Source: an uncultured Candidatus Rokubacteria bacterium
Lineage (GTDB): Bacteria; Methylomirabilota; Methylomirabilia; Rokubacteriales; DASRDR01
Length of the DNA stretch: 64,000 nucleotides
NCBI GenBank assembly: GCA_963799055.1
Contig: CAWCVP010000009.1
Location: forward strand, 2,299-66,298
Direction of reading: 5' to 3'
The position numbers and the translations under genes are program-made. Positions 41,698-51,295 of this stretch are shown here, one piece after another. Every line of letters begins with the position of its first letter. Position 1 is the stretch's first letter. The notes under the pieces were generated by a model, which had not been told where the DNA came from, searched no databases, and saw only the letters and a program-made list of their open reading frames with translations.

Positions 41698-42487
41698 CCG
41701 CCCGGGCTCCCCGCCTCTGCTGTCCGTCTCGAGCATCGAGACGCTCTATTTCGATCGCATCCATGCGCTGCTGGGCGTGTCGCTCGAGGTCGGGGCCGGC
41801 GACGTCTTCGCCGTGCTCGGGCCGAACGGGGCGGGGAAGACCACGCTGCTCCGGACGATCGCGGGCCTTCTGAAGGACCAGCCGAAGAAGGGCGAGATCC
41901 GGTTCGCCGGGCAGCTCATCGAGCGGCGCCCTCCGGAGCGCATCGCGAACCTCGGGGTCGTCTACGTCCCCGAGGACCGCGGGCTGTTTCGCGAGCTGAC
42001 GGTGGAGGAGAACCTGCGGCTCGGGCTGTGGGGCCGGCGAGACGGGAACATTGCCGCCGATCTCGACTTCGTCTACGGCATGTTCCCGATCCTGCGCGAG
42101 CGAACGCGCCAGGACGCGGAGACGCTGTCGGGCGGCGAGCAGCAGATGCTGGCGCTGGCCCGGGCCATGCTGCGCCGGCCGCGGCTTCTCATGCTGGACG
42201 AGCCGTCCCTCGGGCTCGCCCCGCAGGTCGCCAAGACCGTGTTCGAGGCGCTCACCGTGATCAGCGGACGGGGCACGACGATCCTCCTGGTGGAGCAGAA
42301 TGCCCGGCTGGCCCTCCGGATCGCCCGCCACGCGGCGATCCTGGAGTCGGGTCGCATCGTGCTCCAGGGACCGGCGGCGGAGCTTGCGGAGAACCCGGAC
42401 GTGCGCGAGGTGTACCTGGGGGTGGGCGGTACCGACGCCGCCTCGCCCAAGGGCTGGCGGCTCTACCGCAAGCGGAGGCGATGGTGA
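41687..42487 (+). CDS. livF: ABC transporter ATP-binding protein (LivF-type)
   Basis: Track ORF 266 aa: GPNGAGKTTLLRTIAG, LSGGEQQMLALARA, LMLDEPSLGLAP. Start codon uncertain (TTG 41687). Confidence 0.9.
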   Translation: MATDRPGSPPLLSVSSIETLYFDRIHALLGVSLEVGAGDVFAVLGPNGAGKTTLLRTIAGLLKDQPKKGEIRFAGQLIERRPPERIANLGVVYVPEDRGLFRELTVEENLRLGLWGRRDGNIAADLDFVYGMFPILRERTRQDAETLSGGEQQMLALARAMLRRPRLLMLDEPSLGLAPQVAKTVFEALTVISGRGTTILLVEQNARLALRIARHAAILESGRIVLQGPAAELAENPDVREVYLGVGGTDAASPKGWRLYRKRRRW

Positions 42488-44296
42488 TGGAGACGATCAC
42501 GCCGGTGGCGGGCACCTTCCCCGAGCTGTTCTTCTCGCAGGTGCGGAGGCAGGGGCCCGCCCTCGCGCTCCGGCACAAGGTCTTCGGCATCTGGCAGCGC
42601 GTCTCGTGGGCCGAGTACGGGGAGGCGGTCGAGCGTGTGGCCGGCGGCCTCCTGGCCGCGGGACTCGCCCCCGGGGAGCGGGTGGCCATCCTGGGCGACA
42701 ACCGTCCCGAGTGGCTCTATTGCCACCTGGGGACCATGGCGGCCGGCGGTGCCACGTGCGGGATCTACGCGACATCGTCACCGGAGCAGATCCGGTACCT
42801 CCTCCAGCACTCGGAGGCCCGGTGCCTCTTCGTGGAGAACGAGGAGCAGCTCGAGAAGGTGCTCACCGTGGTCGGCGAGACGGCAATCACGCGGGTCGTC
42901 GTCTGGGACGCGAAGGGGCTCTGGGGGTTCGCCGACGAGCGCGTGACCTTCTTCGAGGACTTCCTGAAGCAGGGACAGGCCTTCCTGGAGGCGAACCCCG
43001 GGCGGCTCGACCGGGCGCGGGGCGGCGATCGGGCCGGACGACCTCGCGATGATCATCTACACGTCGGGCACGACGGGCCCGCCCAAGGGGGCGATGCTCT
43101 CGCACCGGAACATCCTGTGGGAGATCGAGTCGCTCTCGCAGGCGGTGCCGCTCGAGCCCGGCGACGAGGTCGTCTCGTACCTGCCGTTCGCCCACATCTT
43201 CGAGAACTTCACCTCGGTGTTCTGGCCGGTCCGCCTCGGGATCGTCGTGAGCTTCGCCGAGAGCGTGGACACGCTCTTCCAGAACCTGCGCGAGGTCTCG
43301 CCGACGTACTTCGCGGGGCCCCCGCGGATCTGGGAGAAGCTGGCCTCGACCCTCGACCTGCGCATGGCCGACTCGACGCCGCTCAAGCGCGGGCTGTATC
43401 GCTTCGCCGTGGCGGTGGGCCGCCGTCACGCCCGCGCGCGCCGGGCGGGGCACGTCGGCGTCGGCCTCGGCCTGGCCTACCGGCTGGCCCACGCCGCCGT
43501 GCTCTACCCCTTGAAGCGTCGGCTGGGCCTCGAGCGGACCCGGATCGCGGTGTCGGCGGCGGCGCCGGCGGCGCCGGAGCTGTTCGAGTTCTATCACGCG
43601 CTCGGCGTGCCGCTCTTCGAGGTCTACGGCCAGACCGAATCCACCGGTGTCATCACGGCCGGCCGACCCGGCCGGGACCGGGTCGGCACCGTGGGCGAGC
43701 CGATCCCCGGCATCGAGGTGAGGCTCGGGGAGGACGGCGAGATCCTGACGCGCGGGCCGCACGTGTTCCGGGGATACTTCCGGGACCCCGAGCTCACGGC
43801 GCAGACGATCGATGCCGAGGGCTGGCTCCACACCGGCGACGTGGGGGCCTGGGAGGGCGGGCACCTCCGGATCCTGGACCGGAAGAAGGACATCATCATC
43901 ACGGCCGGCGGGAAGAACATCACCCCGGCCTACATCGAGAACAAGCTCAAGTTCAGCCCCTACGTCCAGGACGCGGTCGTGATCGGCGACCGGCGCAAGT
44001 ACGTCGTGGCGTTGATCCTGATCGACGAGGACGTCGTGACCCAGTTTGCCCAGGAGCACCGGATCCCCTTCGCGACGTTCGCGGACCTGACCCAGCACCC
44101 CGAGGTCCACCGCCTGATCAAGGAGGAGGTGGACAAGGTCAACCGCACCCTGTCCCAGGTCGAGTCGATCAAGCGGTTCGCGCTCCTGCCGCGGCGCTTC
44201 TACGAGGAGGAGGGGGACGTGACGCCGACGAAGAAGGTGAAGCGCCGGAGCGTCGAGCGCCGCTACGGCGACCTCATCGAGTCCCTCTACCGCTGA
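42487..44296 (+). CDS. AMP-dependent synthetase/long-chain acyl-CoA ligase, with a +1 frame break near 43020
   Basis: METITPVAGTFPELFFSQVRRQGPALALRHK... (track ORF 42028..44313 frame) joins IIYTSGTTGPPKGAMLSH...YGQTES...TGDVG...GGKNI (track ORF 43049..44296) across a GGGG run. GGAGG SD before ATG 42487. Confidence 0.85.
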
Positions 44297-44298
44297 CC

Positions 44299-44373
44299 GG
44301 GGTCAGACTTTGACTTCCCGACAGTTCGTGCCGCGCCGCTCCCCGAAGTGTAGGGAAGTGAAAGTCTGACCCC
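44299..44373. repeat. palindromic intergenic repeat element, copy 1 (75 bp)
   Basis: Arms GGGGTCAGACTTTGACTTCCCGACAGTTCG and CGAAGTGTAGGGAAGTGAAAGTCTGACCCC are complementary at 27 of 30 positions. Fills the whole gap between the ligase stop (44296) and the livM ATG (44374). Confidence 0.8.
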
Positions 44374-45354
44374 ATGGACCTCGTCGAGAGCTACGCCGAC
44401 GATCTCCGGTTCGCGCGGAAGCCGATCTCGCGGGTGCTCCTGGCCGGGCTGGTCGGCGCCCTGGTGGCGCTGCCGGCGTATGCCGACGCGGCGTGGCTGG
44501 TGCGGGCGAGCCTCATCTGGCTCACCGCGGTCGGCGTCATCGGCCAGAACCTCCTGATCGGCTACACCGGGCTCATCTCGTTCGGCCAGGCGGGGTTCCT
44601 CGCCATCGGCGCGTACACCTTCGGCCATCTGCGCATCGCCGGGGTCCCGCTCCCGCTGGCCCTCCTGGGCGGCGGGGCGGCGGCCGCGCTCGCCGGGGCG
44701 GCGGTGGGGTTCCCGTCGCTCCGGCTGAAGGGCCCGTACCTGGCGATCGCCACCCTCGGGTTCGGGGTCGCCACGTACCAGGTGGTCGCCAACGTGGAGT
44801 GGATCTCGGGGGGCCGCAACGGGCTCGCGGTGCCGCGCCTGGCGGGGCCCGCGGGGATCTCCCGCGAGATGTTCGTCTACTACGTGTACCTCGCCGTCCT
44901 GCTCGTCTTCACCGCGATCGCGTACAACCTGGTCTCCTCGTACGTCGGCCGCGCGTGGGTGGCGATCCGGGACAGTGACGTCGCGGCCGAGGCCATGGGC
45001 GTGAACCTCACGCGGTACAAGCTCCTCGCCTTCGCCGTCTCCTCCTTCTACACGGGAGTCCAGGGGGCGCTCTACGCGCTGTTCCTCGGCCATCTCGAGC
45101 CCCAGACCTTCAATCTCTCGGAGTCGATCACGCTGTTCGTGGCGGTGATCGTCGGCGGCCTCGCCTCGATCGAGGGATCGATCCTGGGCGCGGCGTTCGT
45201 CATCCTGGTGCCGGCGCTCCTCAGCGAGACCCGCTGGCTGGTCCCGATCCTCTTCGGCGTCGGGATCATCGTGGTGCTCGTCTTCGAGCCGCTCGGGCTG
45301 GCCGGGCGGTGGCTCAAGACGCGCCTGTACTTCCAGCTGTGGCCCTTCCGGTGA
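44374..45354 (+). CDS. livM: branched-chain amino acid ABC permease (LivM-type)
   Basis: Track ORF 326 aa, multi-TM: NLLIGYTGLISFGQAGFLAIGAY. Confidence 0.9.
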   Translation: MDLVESYADDLRFARKPISRVLLAGLVGALVALPAYADAAWLVRASLIWLTAVGVIGQNLLIGYTGLISFGQAGFLAIGAYTFGHLRIAGVPLPLALLGGGAAAALAGAAVGFPSLRLKGPYLAIATLGFGVATYQVVANVEWISGGRNGLAVPRLAGPAGISREMFVYYVYLAVLLVFTAIAYNLVSSYVGRAWVAIRDSDVAAEAMGVNLTRYKLLAFAVSSFYTGVQGALYALFLGHLEPQTFNLSESITLFVAVIVGGLASIEGSILGAAFVILVPALLSETRWLVPILFGVGIIVVLVFEPLGLAGRWLKTRLYFQLWPFR

Positions 45355-45370
45355 GCGAGCGCCCGGCCCC

Positions 45371-46252
45371 ATGACGCGGTTCCTCCAGTACGCCTTGACC
45401 GGCCTCTCGGCGGGCAGCCTCTACGCCCTGGTGGCGCTGGGGATCGTGCTCATCTACCGGTCGACCCGCGTCCTCAACTTCGCGCACGGCGCGGTCGCGA
45501 CCTTCGGGACCTTCGTGGCCTTCGGGCTCCTGACCTCGGGCGCGCCGTTCGCGGTCGCGTTCCCGCTGGCGCTCCTGGCGGGAGCGCTGATCGCCGTCGT
45601 CTTCTACTTCATCGTGCTCGTGCCGGCGCAGCGCCAGGGCGCGACCCTCCTGAGCCAGGTGATCCTGACGCTCGGGCTGGCGCTGATCTTCGAGGGCGTG
45701 ATCGTCTACCGGTGGGGCGCGGAGCCCGACCGCTTGCCGTTCCCCCTGTCGGACACGCGGACGTGGCGTCTGGGCTCCCTGTTCGTGAGCGAGCTGAGCG
45801 TGGGGACGCTCGCGGTGAGCCTGGTGGCCAGCGGGCTGCTCTACGTCCTGGTCCAGCGGACGCGGCTCGGCCTGGCGATGCGGGCGGCGTCGGAGAACCT
45901 GCAGGCCGCCCAGACCCTCGGGATTCCGACCCGGCGCGTCCTCGGCCTGTCGTGGGCGGTGGCGTCGGCGCTCGGCGTTCTCGCCGGGATCTTCCTGGCG
46001 CCGGCGCTGCTCCTGGACCCGTTCTTCATGCTCGACCCCTTCCTCAAGGGGTTCGCGGCGGCCGTCCTCGGAGGGCTGAACAGCCTGCCGGGCGCGGTGC
46101 TGGGCGGCGTGATCCTGGGACTCGCCGAGAGCCTGGCCGGCGCCTACCTGACGATCCAGTTCAAGAACACCCTGGCCTTCCTGGTGATCATCGTCGTGCT
46201 GCTGGTCCGGCCGGATGGGCTGCTGGGCCGCCCCTTCAAGGAGCGCGTGTGA
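45371..46252 (+). CDS. livH: branched-chain amino acid ABC permease (LivH-type)
   Basis: Track ORF 293 aa: MTRFLQYALTGLSAGSLYALVALGIVLIYRSTRVLNFAHG. Confidence 0.9.
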   Translation: MTRFLQYALTGLSAGSLYALVALGIVLIYRSTRVLNFAHGAVATFGTFVAFGLLTSGAPFAVAFPLALLAGALIAVVFYFIVLVPAQRQGATLLSQVILTLGLALIFEGVIVYRWGAEPDRLPFPLSDTRTWRLGSLFVSELSVGTLAVSLVASGLLYVLVQRTRLGLAMRAASENLQAAQTLGIPTRRVLGLSWAVASALGVLAGIFLAPALLLDPFFMLDPFLKGFAAAVLGGLNSLPGAVLGGVILGLAESLAGAYLTIQFKNTLAFLVIIVVLLVRPDGLLGRPFKERV

Positions 46253-46278
46253 CAGCCGGGCCGGGCGCTCGGGCGCCG

Positions 46279-46308
46279 TTGCCCGCGGCGCCGGGGCCGG
46301 GATAGAAT
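46279..46308 (+). promoter_or_regulatory. promoter candidate placing the transcription start at or next to ATG 46316 (leaderless mRNA?)
   Basis: TTGCCC (46279..46284), 18-nt spacer, TAGAAT (46303..46308). Only 7 nt separate the -10 from the ATG, and there is no SD. Confidence 0.45.
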
Positions 46309-46315
46309 CCCTCGC

Positions 46316-47072
46316 ATGGAACGGCCGATCGCCTACGACAAGCTGGCGCGGGAGGACCGGTTCGTCCGGATGCGCGCCCGCCGGGTAGGGGAGCTGCAGA
46401 GCGGAGCAGGGCTTGCCGCTCATGCCCGACCTCTCGTCGACCGAGTCGATCCGGGAGCGCGTCCACGGGATCCTCGTGGGCGAGCTCCAGGCGATGGAAG
46501 GCGCCGGCCGCACGGTCTACGACTTCCCGGACGCGCCGTGGGAGTTCACGATGGACATGGCGCGCCAGACCTGGGACGAGTCGCGCCACGTCGAGGTCTT
46601 CAGCCGCCTGCTCGAGCATCTCGGCGGCTACATCGGGGAGTTCCCGGAGACGACGATCCTCTGGCGCTGCGCCTGCGCGGAGGACGCCGCCGCGCGGGTG
46701 GCGGGCGTGAACCGGGGGCTCGAGGGGCTGGCCTGCGACGTGTTCGTCCAGCTGGTCGAGATCGCCCGGCGCCTGCCGGACCCGACGATCGCCCAGGCGG
46801 TCGACTACGTGCTGGCCGACGAGATCACGCACGTGCGCATGGGCTCCTACTGGCTCAACAAGCTGACGGAGGGCGATCCGGAGCGACGCCAGCGCGCCGT
46901 CGAGTTCCAGGAGACCATCGACGATCGGTTCAATCTCGGCGGCATGCGCCGGGAGGGACCCGCCGACCAGGTGCCGATCGCGATCGCGACCGAGTACCGG
47001 AAGCTCGCGGGCTTCACCGACGAGGAGATCGCGCGGCTCGTCAAGAGCACGCAGCGCAGCCCGGTCTACTGA
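46316..47072 (+). CDS. DUF455 ferritin-like (putative di-iron) protein, with a +1 frame break near 46411
   Basis: MERPIAYDKLAREDRFVRMRARRVGELQSGAG (ATG 46316 frame) joins track ORF 46413..47072. Two ExxH motifs (DESRHVEVF, ADEITHVRMG). Confidence 0.7.
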
Positions 47073-47075
47073 GCC

Positions 47076-47681
47076 GTGACCGGAGGCGCATCCCCGCCCG
47101 CCGACTCGCCCAGCCGGGAGCTGGCCGGGCACCTTGGTGTCGAGGCCACCGCCCGTCAGGTGCGCCACTACCGCTACGCCGAGGAGCGGATGATGCGCGT
47201 GATGGCGGGGTGGATCGCGCTCACCCCCGAGATTCCCGCCAAGCTCCTGCTGGGCCGGCAGGTGTGGGACTGCGCGCAGCACGCGGATCTCTGGGGCAAG
47301 CGCCTGCCCGAGCTGCGTGCGCCCGGGCAGGTCTCCGAGCCCTCGGGGCCCGGGTTCGTCCGGTTCCTGGACGCGCTGGAGTCGCGCGAGGCCTGGGGCG
47401 AGACCATCGAGCGGCTGACCGGCGTCTACCGGGTCCTGAAGCCGCACCTGGTCTCCGCATACGACGCCCACCTCGGCCGGACCAACTCGGTGTACGAGCC
47501 GCCCACCCGGCGGATCCTGGAGCGCTGCCTCGGCGACGAGCGCCGCCACCTGGCCGAGGGCGCGGCCGTCCTCGAGTCCCTCGCCCGCACGCCGGCCGAG
47601 CGGGCGCGCCTCACGGCCTGGGAGCGCGAGCTGCGAGGGATGCTCGACGCCCACGGCGGGGTGACCGGGGGAGGGGGATGA
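47076..47681 (+). CDS. second ferritin-like four-helix-bundle protein (putative metal-binding)
   Basis: Track ORF 201 aa, GTG start 4 nt after the previous stop. YAEERMMRV, WDCAQHADLW, GDERRHLAEG (ExxH). Confidence 0.55.
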   Translation: MTGGASPPADSPSRELAGHLGVEATARQVRHYRYAEERMMRVMAGWIALTPEIPAKLLLGRQVWDCAQHADLWGKRLPELRAPGQVSEPSGPGFVRFLDALESREAWGETIERLTGVYRVLKPHLVSAYDAHLGRTNSVYEPPTRRILERCLGDERRHLAEGAAVLESLARTPAERARLTAWERELRGMLDAHGGVTGGGG

Positions 47682-48047
47682 GTCGCGGCCGCGCTGCCGG
47701 GAGCGACGAGCCCGAGCGGGCGGCTCGGGCTCATGCCGAGCGGATCGCCGGCCGAGACCGGAGCGCGCTTGGCGGATCTCGCGCCGGGCGCGGAGGTCAC
47801 CCCGCCGGACCTCCTCGAGTGGCTGATGGGATGCCGGTTCCGGGCCGCCGAGCTGGTGGCCCACGCCCGGATCGGGACCCATCACGTCCTCAAGACGAAG
47901 TTCGTCGGGGCGACCACCGTCGTGGTGCAGGCGCGATGGGTGGCGGACGACGCCGGCCGCTGGCTCATCCGTGAAGCGGAGATCGCCCGCGTGGAAGGCG
48001 CGCCGGCGGGGTCGCCCCGGCCCGTGTCCCGGCCCGGAGAGGTCTGA
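47678..48047 (+). CDS. small hypothetical protein (possibly NTF2/SnoaL-like); frame break near 47750, or an alternative start at 47733
   Basis: ATGA overlap with the previous gene: MSRGRAAGSDEPERAARAHAERIA, then one frame over AETGARLADLAPGAEVTPPDLLEWLMGCRF...WVADDAGRWLIREAEIARVEG (track ORF 47733..48047). Confidence 0.5.
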
Positions 48048-48067
48048 TCCTGTTCGACTCCCTCCTG

Positions 48068-49384
48068 GTGGCCAACCGGGGTGAGATCGCCCTCCGGATC
48101 ATCCGCACCTGTCGACGGCTCGGGATCGCGACGGTCGCGGTCTACTCGGAGGCCGACGCCGGCGCCCCTCACGCTCGGGCGGCCGACCGCGCGCTGGCCA
48201 TCGGACCGGCGCCCGCCCGCGAGAGCTACCTGTCGATCGACCGCCTGCTCGGGGCGGCCCGGGAGGCCCGCGTGGCCGCGATTCACCCGGGCTACGGGTT
48301 CCTGTCGGAGAACTGGCGCTTCGCGGAGGCCTGTCGCGAGGCGGGCGTCACGTTCGTGGGGCCGCCGCCCGAGGTGTTGCGGACCATGGGCGACAAGACG
48401 GAGGCGCGCCGAATCGTGGGCGGCGCCGGCGTTCCGGTCCTGCCGGGCTCCGACGGCCCCGTCGGGAGCGCGGGGGCGGCGCGGGAGGCCGCCGACGCGA
48501 TCGGCTATCCGGTCATGCTCAAGGCCGCCGCCGGGGGAGGCGGGATCGGGATGGCGCTCGTCCCCGATCCCGCGCGGATCGAGGCGGCCTTCGCCGCCGC
48601 GCAGCGGCGCGTCCAGTCCGCCTTCGGGGAGGCGGCGGTCTACGTGGAGCGGGCCATCGAGCGTCCGCGCCACATCGAAGTTCAGATCCTCGCCGACGGG
48701 CACGGACCCCCGATCCACCTCTTCGAGCGAGACTGCTCCATCCAGCGGCGGCATCAGAAGCTCGTGGAGGAGTCGCCGGCACCCCAGCTCGACCCCGGTC
48801 TTCGATCGCGGCTGCACGAGGCGGGCGTGCGGGCGGCGGCCGCCGCCGGATACCGGAACGCCGGCACCGTCGAGTTCCTGGTCGACGGTGATCGGTTCTA
48901 CTTCCTCGAGGTGAACGCGCGCCTCCAGGTGGAGCATCCGGTAACGGAGGAGATCGTCGGGTGCGACCTCGTCGAGGCGCAGCTCCGGATCGCCGCCGGG
49001 GACCCGCTCGGATGGACTCAGTCGGACGTCATGGCTCGCGGCGCCGCGATCGAGTGCCGGATCTATGCCGAGGACCCGGACCGGGGCTTCCTCCCGTCAC
49101 CCGGCACCGTCACCGTCGTCGACCTGCCCGAGGGGCCCGGACTTCGTCACGAATGTGGGGTCGAGCCGGGGAGCGTGATCGGCGTCCACTACGACCCGCT
49201 CCTGGCGAAGGTGATCGCCGCCGGGCGGGACCGGGCCGAGGCCATCGGGCGGCTGGCCGGGGCGCTCGAGCGCTACCGGATCGATGGGGTGAAGACCACG
49301 GTGCCGCTCCACCGGCGGATCCTGGCGAGCCCGGCGTTCCGGGCCGGGGCGGTGCACACGCGGTTCCTCGAGGGAGGGCTCTGA
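48068..49384 (+). CDS. accC: biotin carboxylase (AccC-type ATP-grasp)
   Basis: Track ORF 438 aa: ANRGEIALRIIRT, GYPVMLKAAAGGGGIGM, HIEVQILADGHG, ERDCSIQRRHQKLVEE, EVNARLQVEHPVTE. Homology (ILFDSLLV) extends upstream of the GTG to about 48047 without a canonical start. Confidence 0.9.
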   Translation: MANRGEIALRIIRTCRRLGIATVAVYSEADAGAPHARAADRALAIGPAPARESYLSIDRLLGAAREARVAAIHPGYGFLSENWRFAEACREAGVTFVGPPPEVLRTMGDKTEARRIVGGAGVPVLPGSDGPVGSAGAAREAADAIGYPVMLKAAAGGGGIGMALVPDPARIEAAFAAAQRRVQSAFGEAAVYVERAIERPRHIEVQILADGHGPPIHLFERDCSIQRRHQKLVEESPAPQLDPGLRSRLHEAGVRAAAAAGYRNAGTVEFLVDGDRFYFLEVNARLQVEHPVTEEIVGCDLVEAQLRIAAGDPLGWTQSDVMARGAAIECRIYAEDPDRGFLPSPGTVTVVDLPEGPGLRHECGVEPGSVIGVHYDPLLAKVIAAGRDRAEAIGRLAGALERYRIDGVKTTVPLHRRILASPAFRAGAVHTRFLEGGL

Positions 49385-49388
49385 GACC

Positions 49389-49604
49389 ATGGCCGAAGAG
49401 GTGCGCGCCCACATCACGGGCGTCGTGTTCCAGGTCGTCGCCGGCGTGGGGGAGAAGGTCGCGGCGGGCGACCCGATCCTGATCCTGGAGTCGATGAAGA
49501 TGGAGATCCCCGTCGAGGCGCCGCGCGCGGGGGTGGTGCGCGAGCTCCGGGTGGCCGAAGGGCAGACCGTCCAGGAAGGCGAGGTCGTCGCGACGCTGGA
49601 CTAG
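49389..49604 (+). CDS. minimal biotinyl-domain carrier protein (BCCP-like, 71 aa)
   Basis: Track ORF: ...GDPILILESMKMEIPVEAPRAGVV...; (A/S)MKM biotinylation motif. Confidence 0.85.
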   Translation: MAEEVRAHITGVVFQVVAGVGEKVAAGDPILILESMKMEIPVEAPRAGVVRELRVAEGQTVQEGEVVATLD

Positions 49605-49607
49605 GTC

Positions 49608-49700
49608 GGGTCAGGCTTCGCGCTTCCCGACATTTCACGCTGCCCGGCCGACCAGGGTCGGGCGCGGCCGAAATGTCGGGAAGTGACAAGTCTGGACCCC
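49608..49700. repeat. palindromic intergenic repeat element, copy 2 (93 bp)
   Basis: Left arm GGGTCAGGCTTCGCGCTTCCCGACATTTC and right arm GAAATGTCGGGAAGTGACAAGTCTGGACCCC. Inner 14 bp are perfectly complementary. The arms are homologous to copy 1. Fills the gap between the convergent BCCP and rpoD stops. Confidence 0.8.
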
Positions 49701-49702
49701 GA

Positions 49703-51295
49703 TCAGTTCTCGACGAAGCTCCGCAGTCCGCGGCCGCGGAGCGGCGAGCGCAGCTTACGGAGCGCCTTCGCCTCGATCTGTCGGATGCGCTCGCGCGTCA
49801 CGTCGAAGCGCTGCCCGACCTCCTCCAGCGTGTGCTCGCCTTCCTCGCCGATCCCGAACCGGAGCCGGAGGATCTGCGCCTCCTTCTCCGAGAGACCGGA
49901 GAGGGCGCGCTCCACCTGCGCGGTGAGGTCGTCGGACAGGAGCGACTCCACCGGCGAGGGCGTGCGCTTGTCCTCGAGGAAGTCCCCGAGGTCGGAGTCC
50001 TCCCCGATCGGCGTCTCGAGCGACAGCGGCTTCTTGCACGACTCCATGATCAGCCGGACCTTGCGGAGCGGCAGCTCGCACCGGTTCGCCAGCTCCTCCG
50101 GGGTCGGCTCCCGCCCGAGCTCCTGGAAGAGGCCCCGGTTCACCCGCGCCAGCCGGTTCAGCGTCTCGATCATGTGCACCGGGATGCGGATCGTCCGCGC
50201 GTGGTCGGCGATCGCCCGCGTGATCGCCTGGCGGATCCACCAGGTCGCGTAGGTCGAGAACTTGAAGCCGCGGCGGTACTTGAACCGGTCGACGGCCTTC
50301 ATGAGACCGATGTTGCCCTCCTGGATGAGGTCCAGGAGCGGCATGTCGTGGTTCAGGTAGCGCTTGGCGATGGAGACCACCAGACGGAGGTTCGCCTCCA
50401 TGAGGGCCTTCTTCGCCACGCGCACCTCGAACTCGCCCGCGTCCAGATCCCGCATGACCGCGACGGCACGCTTGGGAGGCAGCCCGAGCTCCGCCTCGAT
50501 CGCCCGACCGCGCTTCCGCAGCTCGGCCTTCGATCCCTTGTCGGTCAGGGTCTCGATCTGCTTCTGGAGGCCAGCCAGCTCCTGGGCCAGGGTGCGGAAA
50601 CGTCCCACCCAGCGGTCGACGACCATCGGCTTCAACGGAAGGTCGCCCAGGAGACGCACCCGATCCTGATGGTTCTGCGCCATCCAGTCCTGGATCGCCT
50701 TGATCGTGGAGTCCTTGCGCGCCCGATTCCGCGACGCCTGGAGCTCGCCGAGCTCGCGGTCCAGCCTCCGGATCTGAGCGAACACGCCCAGCACCCGCCG
50801 GAGCTCGGTCTCCGTGAGCTCGGTACCGTCGAGGGCCTCCAGGTACTGATCCGGCTCGGCCTCGTGCTTCCGCAGCCGCTCGGCCAGCTCCATGAGCAGC
50901 GTCCGGATCATCGGGACGGCCATGATGGCCCGGCGGACCCGCTCCTGGCCTCGCTCGATCTGCTGGCCGAGGCTGACTTCCTGCTCGGAGTTGAGGAGGT
51001 GGATCCGCCCGATCTCCCTCAGGTAGAGACGAACAGGGTCCTCGGGGGCCAGGCTCTCCTCGACGGGCTCGTCGTCTTCCTCGACCGCGCGCTCGAACTC
51101 GTCCGACGCTCCGGTCAGGCTGTCCTCGCCCTCGGCCGCCGCCGGCAGCTCTAGATTGCGAAGGACTTCCTCGACCTTGTCGGCCGGAACGAGCTCGCCA
51201 GGAGTCTGACCAAGGCCATCCTCGGTCTTGGCCTGTCGAGTTCTGGACACGGCCACCGAGGAGATCCGCTCATTCGGCGTAACACGCTGGAGCAT
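49703..51295 (-). CDS. rpoD: primary sigma-70 factor RpoD
   Basis: Track ORF 530 aa: [82 protein letters not shown]. Confidence 0.95.

Follow-up and report, generated by a model that had tools for sequence, protein, structure and literature searches.

Among the Y1 transposases that are linked to dispersed repeats, classical RAYTs are flanked by REPs of the GTAG type and TIRYTs by long terminal inverted repeats, or TIRs (Di Nocera, De Gregorio and Rocco, 2013; PMC3733652). The TIRs of some TIRYTs start with GGGGWSAS, TIRs can make up families of moderate abundance in which singles and dimers occur, and published examples of TIRtrons and their TIRYTs include ORFs 1152 and 4509 of Stenotrophomonas maltophilia K279a and ORF 1552 of Koribacter versatilis (PMC3733652). 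Most TIRYTs fall into subclass 2.1 of the TnpA-Y1 proteins, in which the 2.1.2 members carry a C-terminal extension of the Bac_DnaA_C/HTH kind; the survey that defined this grouping reported no REP-like sequences beside subclass 2.1 genes (Quentin et al., 2018; PMC6006769). The REPINs of Pseudomonas, in turn, have a spacing that is fixed at 71 or 110 bp (Bertels and Rainey, 2011; PMC3116915).

The element that we describe here belongs to a Candidatus Rokubacteria MAG (G000; 4.06 Mb in 23 contigs, 71% GC, about 71% complete) and was found in a 64-kb stretch of it, C9:2299-66298, which we refer to as the window. It is a copy of a dispersed non-coding inverted-repeat family linked to a TIRYT gene, and thus small mobile DNA of a known kind. 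As in the TIRtrons, a Y1/HUH gene is bracketed by long inverted repeats without the GTAG tag, whose start, GGGGTCAG, fits GGGGWSAS; the ORF extends into the 3' TIR, and the TIRs are dispersed between genes as singles, dimers and clusters. The protein, too, is of the TIRYT type, which is longer than RAYTs and has an MARxPR...YHVxxRGN N-terminus and an HTH C-terminal extension. The Rokubacteria family differs in its host phylum, which is new for such repeats (Candidatus Rokubacteria/Methylomirabilota), in a copy number that is high for this class, with at least 127 arms in a 4-Mb MAG that is only about 71% complete and 114 in the congener G002, and in the coexistence of arm subtypes, unique dimer spacers and a subtype that varies between genomes at one orthologous site. 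An HUH-Y core with a C-terminal extension like Bac_DnaA_C/HTH_23 is shared with TnpA-Y1 subclass 2.1.2, whereas the flanking arms, which also form an abundant dispersed family, set this gene apart from those described for subclass 2.1. Our literature search found no paper linking Rokubacteria with Y1-transposase-linked inverted repeats; an abundant and previously unannotated repeat of this uncultured soil phylum is now placed in that class.

The palindrome between the ligase and livM genes

Pfam profiles recover, in this order, a Peripla_BP_6 binding protein, two ABC ATPases, an AMP-binding ligase and two BPD_transp_2 permeases that resemble livM and livH. The original prediction held that the 77 nt separating the ligase stop from the livM start are almost entirely one long imperfect palindrome, and gave the element its arm and loop lengths and its type of mismatch; all of this stands on re-examination of the sequence. 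The features concerned are the following:

43049..44296, plus strand: acyl-CoA ligase gene, C-terminal two-thirds (AMP-binding profile positions 166-384 and AMP-binding_C_3); the N-terminal part lies upstream in another frame
44294..44296, plus strand: TGA stop of the AMP-binding acyl-CoA ligase gene, with 2 nt between it and the stem
44299..44373, no strand: copy 1 of the TIR-dimer element, comprising all 75 nt of the palindrome, from repeat and fold analysis (C9:46597-46671 in the genome-wide family)
44299..44328, plus strand: left arm GGGGTCAGACTTTGACTTCCCGACAGTTCG, starting with the GGGGWSAS-type motif GGGGTCAG (motif from PMC3733652), with G at arm position 14
44329..44343, no strand: locus-specific GC-rich spacer or loop TGCCGCGCCGCTCCC, 15 nt
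44344..44373, minus strand: right arm, reverse complement GGGGTCAGACTTTCACTTCCCTACACTTCG, with C at arm position 14 as in the abundant A subtype
44374..45354, plus strand: livM-type branched-chain amino-acid permease gene (BPD_transp_2), its ATG adjoining the last base of copy 1
49608..49700, no strand: TIR-dimer element copy 2 (arms 49608-49636 and 49670-49700, 33-nt spacer), between convergent BCCP-like and rpoD genes

The two 30-nt arms of copy 1 are complementary at 27 positions, the exceptions being G-G oppositions at positions 14 and 26 and a G-A opposition at position 22; as a hybrid, the copy combines a B-like arm on the left with an A-like one on the right (subtypes are defined below). 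The stem begins 2 nt past the ligase TGA (44294-44296) and its last base abuts the livM ATG at 44374, so that the element fills the gap. Copy 1 is the top-ranked inverted repeat of the window, and copy 2 (49612-49694 in the repeat search) is the second. Folding, which had been proposed as a check, bears out both hairpins: the RNA minimum free energy of copy 1 is -49.3 kcal/mol compared to -22.0 +/- 3.3 kcal/mol for shuffled sequences (z -8.3; 0 of 200 shuffles as good), and copy 2 reaches -71.5 kcal/mol (z -9.2 against its shuffles). No U-tract follows the copy 1 stem, which has ATGGACCTCG next on its 3' side, and a terminator scan around the element returned only a trivial 5-bp stem at 44293-44306. 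The only Rfam match, to the animal microRNA precursor mir-1256 over 44298-44375, scored 40.1 bits, below the gathering score of 70, and was set aside as a generic artefact of long hairpins.

The element at 49608..49700, pointed out earlier as a homologue of the ligase-livM palindrome, proved to be a true second copy of the family. At the BCCP/rpoD junction (49605-49702 in the window; loci L100 and L138-L148), G002 and 11 of 12 further congeners, the exception being G004, possess a strong terminator-like hairpin, mostly CCGGCCGGCCAGTC-N-GACTGGCCGGCCGG; G000 and G004 alone bear an A-type doublet instead. The copy 2 spacer bears a faint resemblance to the old hairpin of this junction.

Two further observations concern the neighbouring genes. 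The ligase gene (42478-44296) shows a net +1 indel at 43026-43034 relative to the intact G002 orthologue, which leaves its N-terminal third (METITPVAG...) out of frame with the C-terminal 415 aa; this could be either a real pseudogene or an assembly indel. The sole sigma-70-like promoter match in 43800-50200 lies at 46279-46308 (TTGCCC-18-TAGAAT), in the gap after the second permease gene, and is followed by a 552-aa ORF (46316-47971) without a Pfam match.

A dispersed arm family and its linked transposase

The original prediction proposed that both arms be used to search the genome for further copies. The 20-nt arm core GGGTCAGACTTTGACTTCCC gave 127 matches genome-wide when up to 4 mismatches were allowed, whereas two control words gave 1 each; 0 chance matches were expected in the window. 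Most of the matches form convergent, that is, inverted pairs, from which we catalogued 51 clean doublets of 68-129 nt without a dominant length class; many of the 25 matches classed as singles have a more diverged partner arm. Conservation extends over about 29 nt of the arm in these doublets, with the consensus GGGGTCAGACTTT[G/C]ACTTCC.GACA[T/A]TTC, and the arms enclose GC-rich, locus-specific spacers of 10-71 nt. The motif GGGGTCAG opens 50 of the 51 left arms and as many of the right arms, and the bases next to the doublets are mostly C on the left (36/51) and G on the right (41/51). Subtype A (GACTTTCACTTCCCGACATTTC, with C at position 14) is the most abundant; the others are B (GACTTTGACTTC..AACAATTC), C (GGCCTTGACTTCCAAACAATTC) and a fourth subtype that bears an insertion. 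A single arm could fold at best into a 5-bp hairpin, GTCAG-NNN-YTGAC, which is strengthened by the T-to-C variant GTCAGGCCCTGAC and loses a central pair in the commonest subtype, GTCAGACTTTCAC.

The family is confined to the space between genes, and the intergenic bias that the prediction had thought worth checking is pronounced: open frames that show coding-like GC3 on each side run across 0 of the 51 doublets, as compared to 49% of 3000 random segments. Within the limits of incomplete gene calls, 15 of the 51 have a called stop codon no more than 15 nt away, as against 2.3% of random gene-free segments. Target-site duplications, which had been raised as a further check, do not occur, since no direct repeats flank any of the 51 copies.

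The genome contains a single Y1_Tnp Pfam match (C13:183882-184148), and this match is enclosed by inverted arms at 183715-183734 (plus strand) and 184711-184730 (minus strand); the locus is the only longer arm-bounded unit in G000. The reading frame is broken by several frameshifts; when read through with X, the protein matches NCBIfam NF047646 (REP_Tyr_transpos) over its full length with 73.9 bits (cut-off 80) and Y1_Tnp with 47.6 bits. Seven congener loci (L082, L084-L088 and L090) encode intact orthologues of about 300 aa, each bracketed by inverted arms whose subtype tracks the transposase clade, and their ORFs end in ...EVKV-stop inside the right arm (GAAGTCAAAGTCTGA). In G000 (C13:184690-184730) and at L082, L084 and L090 the ending reads ...C(L/P/R)EVKV-stop, and the right arm takes in the last five codons together with the TGA, an overlap that couples the arm sequence to the C-terminal peptide.

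NHVH and RY(I/V)HxNP, which represent the HUH motif and the catalytic tyrosine, are invariant in the eight aligned sequences. Blastp against reference sequences taken from the PMC3733652 supplement gave 41% identity (E 1e-41) to the S. maltophilia TIRYT sml1152 and 36% (E 5e-37) to Geobacter gbm2474, as compared to only 21% (E 7e-4) to the E. coli RAYT. Single-sequence searches of the PDB with the transposase returned nothing; with an eight-sequence profile, the C-terminal third matches DnaA domain IV (3pvp, E 1e-5) and the N-terminal half weakly matches TnpA-REP (4er8, E 0.02). By these sequence comparisons the transposase is of the TIRYT type, TnpA-Y1 subclass 2.1, with a predicted N-terminal HUH/Tyr nuclease domain and a predicted helix-turn-helix that resembles DnaA domain IV.

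The association between arms and transposase extends to other genomes, of which 19 were searched (14 congeners, 4 from other genera of the family and 1 from the same order): arms are present in all 8 genomes with a transposase match, and the 6 genomes without arms have no such match. Twelve of the 14 congeners carry arms; over all 14 the counts range from 0 to 114 (the latter in G002), as compared to 123 in this MAG. In G011, G012 and G030 arms are present and no transposase was detected, and the most abundant subtype, A, flanks none of the transposase genes seen. The genes covered by a 9.8-kb alignment with G002 are not enriched in uncompensated 1-nt indels, so that the frameshifts in the G000 transposase may be real; the ligase gene has a frameshift as well, however, and assembly error may instead be the cause. 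Given that the MAG is only about 71% complete, an active transposase copy may or may not exist.

Site histories, spacers and arm subtypes

Comparison with related genomes dates the insertion at the ligase-livM site. In 11 of 13 loci from more distant Rokubacteria/Methylomirabilota livM starts 0-5 nt after the ligase stop (e.g., TGAcggATG, TAAggGTG, TAG|ATG), and the two remaining loci have longer, unrelated gaps (13 nt at L051 and 48 nt at L037); the 0-5-nt junction is the empty site. In the two nearest species this site is filled: G002 (locus L002; LivM 91% identical) has a 75-nt B-type copy there, with a spacer of equal length that is identical to that of copy 1 at 9 of 17 positions as counted by eye, and G004 (locus L003) has a decayed copy. 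As the element occupies the same site in G000, G002 and G004, its insertion is older than the split of these three species. Of 37 doublets in G002, 23 have collinear flanks in G000, where 20 of the sites are occupied, 1 is empty, 1 holds unrelated sequence and 1 is a poor match. Three further G000 copies correspond to empty sites in other congeners, with 1-11 nt between convergent stops (e.g., TGA-CCCC-CTA, TGAcc-GGGG-gTCA). The comparison of filled with empty sites uncovered no target-site duplication at any of the four loci for which it could be made, the ligase-livM junction among them. In G011, the orthologous copy at the C12 site has decayed while the genes were kept.

The spacers behave differently from the arms. 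At orthologous sites they drift while the arms stay near the consensus; each genome has its characteristic arm subtype there, which is B for the most part in G002 and either A or C in G000. Spacers are 78% GC and not self-complementary (mean z +0.25), and they are mutually unrelated save for one pair, whose arms differ in subtype. Arms are more alike within a doublet than between doublets, and 0 of 10000 permutations reach the observed value. The BCCP/rpoD site had suggested that spacers might be native terminator hairpins embraced by two arms; this was rejected as a general rule on account of the lack of self-complementarity and of the empty sites, which at 0-11 nt (four loci) are too short to have supplied spacers of 17-26 nt. 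Spacers copied from other elements were likewise considered and set aside, with only one related pair among the 51 doublets, and unique spacers argue against the copying of doublets as whole units.

Closely related strains differ in arm subtype at orthologous sites. The contig G002:C5 (33 kb; loci L184 and L185) duplicates a region that is also present on the main G002 chromosome, C8. It matches G000 C14 with about 93-95% identity over the best-aligned stretches and 80-95% overall, as against 84-87% for C8, and probably comes from another, closer strain whose sequence was binned into the G002 MAG. Two orthologous sites on G002:C5 have both arms and the spacer unlike those of G000, with nearly identical immediate flanks, and at the site C14:59912 arms of types A, B and C occur in three sequences with the same left boundary. 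Where strains share about 93-97% identity in the adjoining DNA, the two arms change subtype together. Unique spacers are not what simple copy-and-paste of entire doublets would predict, nor are concerted switches of subtype what simple neutral decay would. We speculate that resident elements could have been overwritten or converted in place, either by the transposase or by hairpin-directed repair, with the unpaired loop changing fast; this proposal is tentative and we regard it as somewhat unlikely. If true, the TIRYT or hairpin-directed repair would represent a repeat-maintenance or gene-conversion system that overwrites resident elements and not merely a seeder of new sites, and the loop would be its hyper-mutable by-product. 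The dynamics of spacers and subtypes are the only part of this family that might hold something new, and the 15 genomes (the MAG and 14 congeners), with their filled and empty orthologous sites and their subtype switching, offer a natural data set on the persistence of TIRYT repeats.

Probable origin of copy 1 and its possible effect on the operon

Taken together, the arms, their distribution and the locus at C13 make it very probable that copy 1 is a non-autonomous TIR dimer of a TIRYT-linked family whose arms bracket the only Y1 gene of the genome. From the distribution of the family we infer that it is mobile. By analogy with TnpA(REP) and the IS200/IS605 enzymes, the transposase would recognize the arms as single-stranded hairpin DNA, perhaps in addition to duplex arm DNA via its HTH, and would cut and rejoin them, which would allow arms to spread and to be re-homogenized. 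Copy 1 entered the 0-5-nt ligase/livM junction in the common ancestor of G000, G002 and G004 and has since been passed on vertically.

A host-selected RNA or DNA structure, for instance a terminator, an mRNA stabilizer or a protein-binding site to which the transposase is linked only incidentally, would account for the position of copies just downstream of stop codons, for an element in the place of the terminator-like hairpin that G002 and 11 other congeners have at BCCP/rpoD, and for arms that remain near the consensus at orthologous sites while the spacers drift. We nevertheless consider it improbable, given that the stem lacks a U-tract, that the same 29-nt arms recur at more than 60 unrelated loci as well as around the transposase gene, and that many sites are empty in congeners; moreover, orthologous copies decay where the genes are retained (the G004 livM site and the G011 C12 site), and copy 1 was inserted into a coupled intra-operon junction of 0-5 nt, where a terminator would be harmful. 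A chance local palindrome, the outcome that the original prediction had kept in reserve, is refuted by further copies in the genome: with z -8.3 and 0 of 200 shuffles as good, 127 arm matches compared to 1 per control word, and arms in 12 of 14 congeners, its probability is virtually nil.

The remaining alternatives concern the class of mobile element. The comparison with REP/BIME-type repeats, drawn in the original prediction, is correct in that the family is dispersed, strictly intergenic and palindromic, but it does not extend to the GTAG type. REPIN-RAYT systems do share with the Rokubacteria family the inverted doublets with a predicted hairpin, the strictly extragenic placement, the single-copy cognate Y1 transposase flanked by repeats and a mostly vertical inheritance with copies at orthologous sites in related species, and REP_Tyr_transpos is the best NCBIfam model for the protein. 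A canonical GTAG-type REP or REPIN of the sort that classical RAYTs mobilize in E. coli or Pseudomonas is still very improbable: arms open with GGGGTCAG instead of GT[AG]G and are not clear imperfect palindromes, the 5-bp hairpin that an arm can form at best being broken in the commonest subtype; the spacing varies over 68-129 nt and is not fixed at 71 or 110 bp, with unconserved spacers that are unrelated save for one pair; and the protein is far nearer to TIRYTs than to the RAYTs of E. coli or Pseudomonas. The MITE-like origin that the terminal inverted repeats had suggested likewise survives in part, in that the element is MITE-like in kind, without target-site duplication. A MITE derived from an insertion sequence with a DDE transposase that shares its terminal inverted repeats would fit the 29-nt repeats and the short non-coding interior, and yet it is extremely improbable, as neither the 51 copies nor the four empty-site loci show target-site duplications, the interiors are mutually unrelated and the only longer arm-bounded unit in the genome is the Y1 transposase locus.

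For the TIRYT-linked dimer at the ligase-livM junction, a side effect on expression is plausible. On the mRNA, copy 1 is predicted to form a hairpin of -49 kcal/mol that would reach from 2 nt past the ligase stop to position -1 of the livM ATG. The likeliest phenotypic effect would be a by-product of the insertion, that is, a weaker or altered translational coupling of livM together with a barrier to 3'-exonucleases for the upstream message. The hairpin would bury the region in which the livM ribosome-binding site is expected; some coupling could survive, since ribosomes that finish the ligase gene would melt the foot of the stem. In E. coli, REPs between malE and malF block 3'-5' exonucleases. 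Copy 1 shares with the operon-borne REP/BIME elements of E. coli a stable intercistronic hairpin near the upstream stop codon; it differs in abutting the downstream start codon and in replacing a coupled 0-5-nt junction. By the same analogy, the hairpin could shield the message upstream of it and reduce expression downstream. That it was designed as a signal to partition the operon is unlikely, because the hairpin is a secondary insertion into an ancestrally 0-5-nt junction and lacks a U-tract. Hairpins of -50 to -70 kcal/mol at 0-15 nt from stop or start codons are nonetheless relevant to the prediction of operon expression in these organisms.

Two minor observations bear on the family outside the window. 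Many arm matches in the short-read MAGs G004 and G030 lie in the first 10-60 nt of contigs (e.g., G004 C65:20-38, C71:3-21 and C89:12-30); the family appears to break assemblies, and repeats at contig ends limit the assembly of such MAGs. At G000 C18:1175-2269, a TIR dimer whose G002 counterpart (L116) is uninterrupted has taken up about 1 kb of inserted DNA with an HTH/integrase-like transposase ORF, so that insertion into the dimers is open to an insertion sequence as well.
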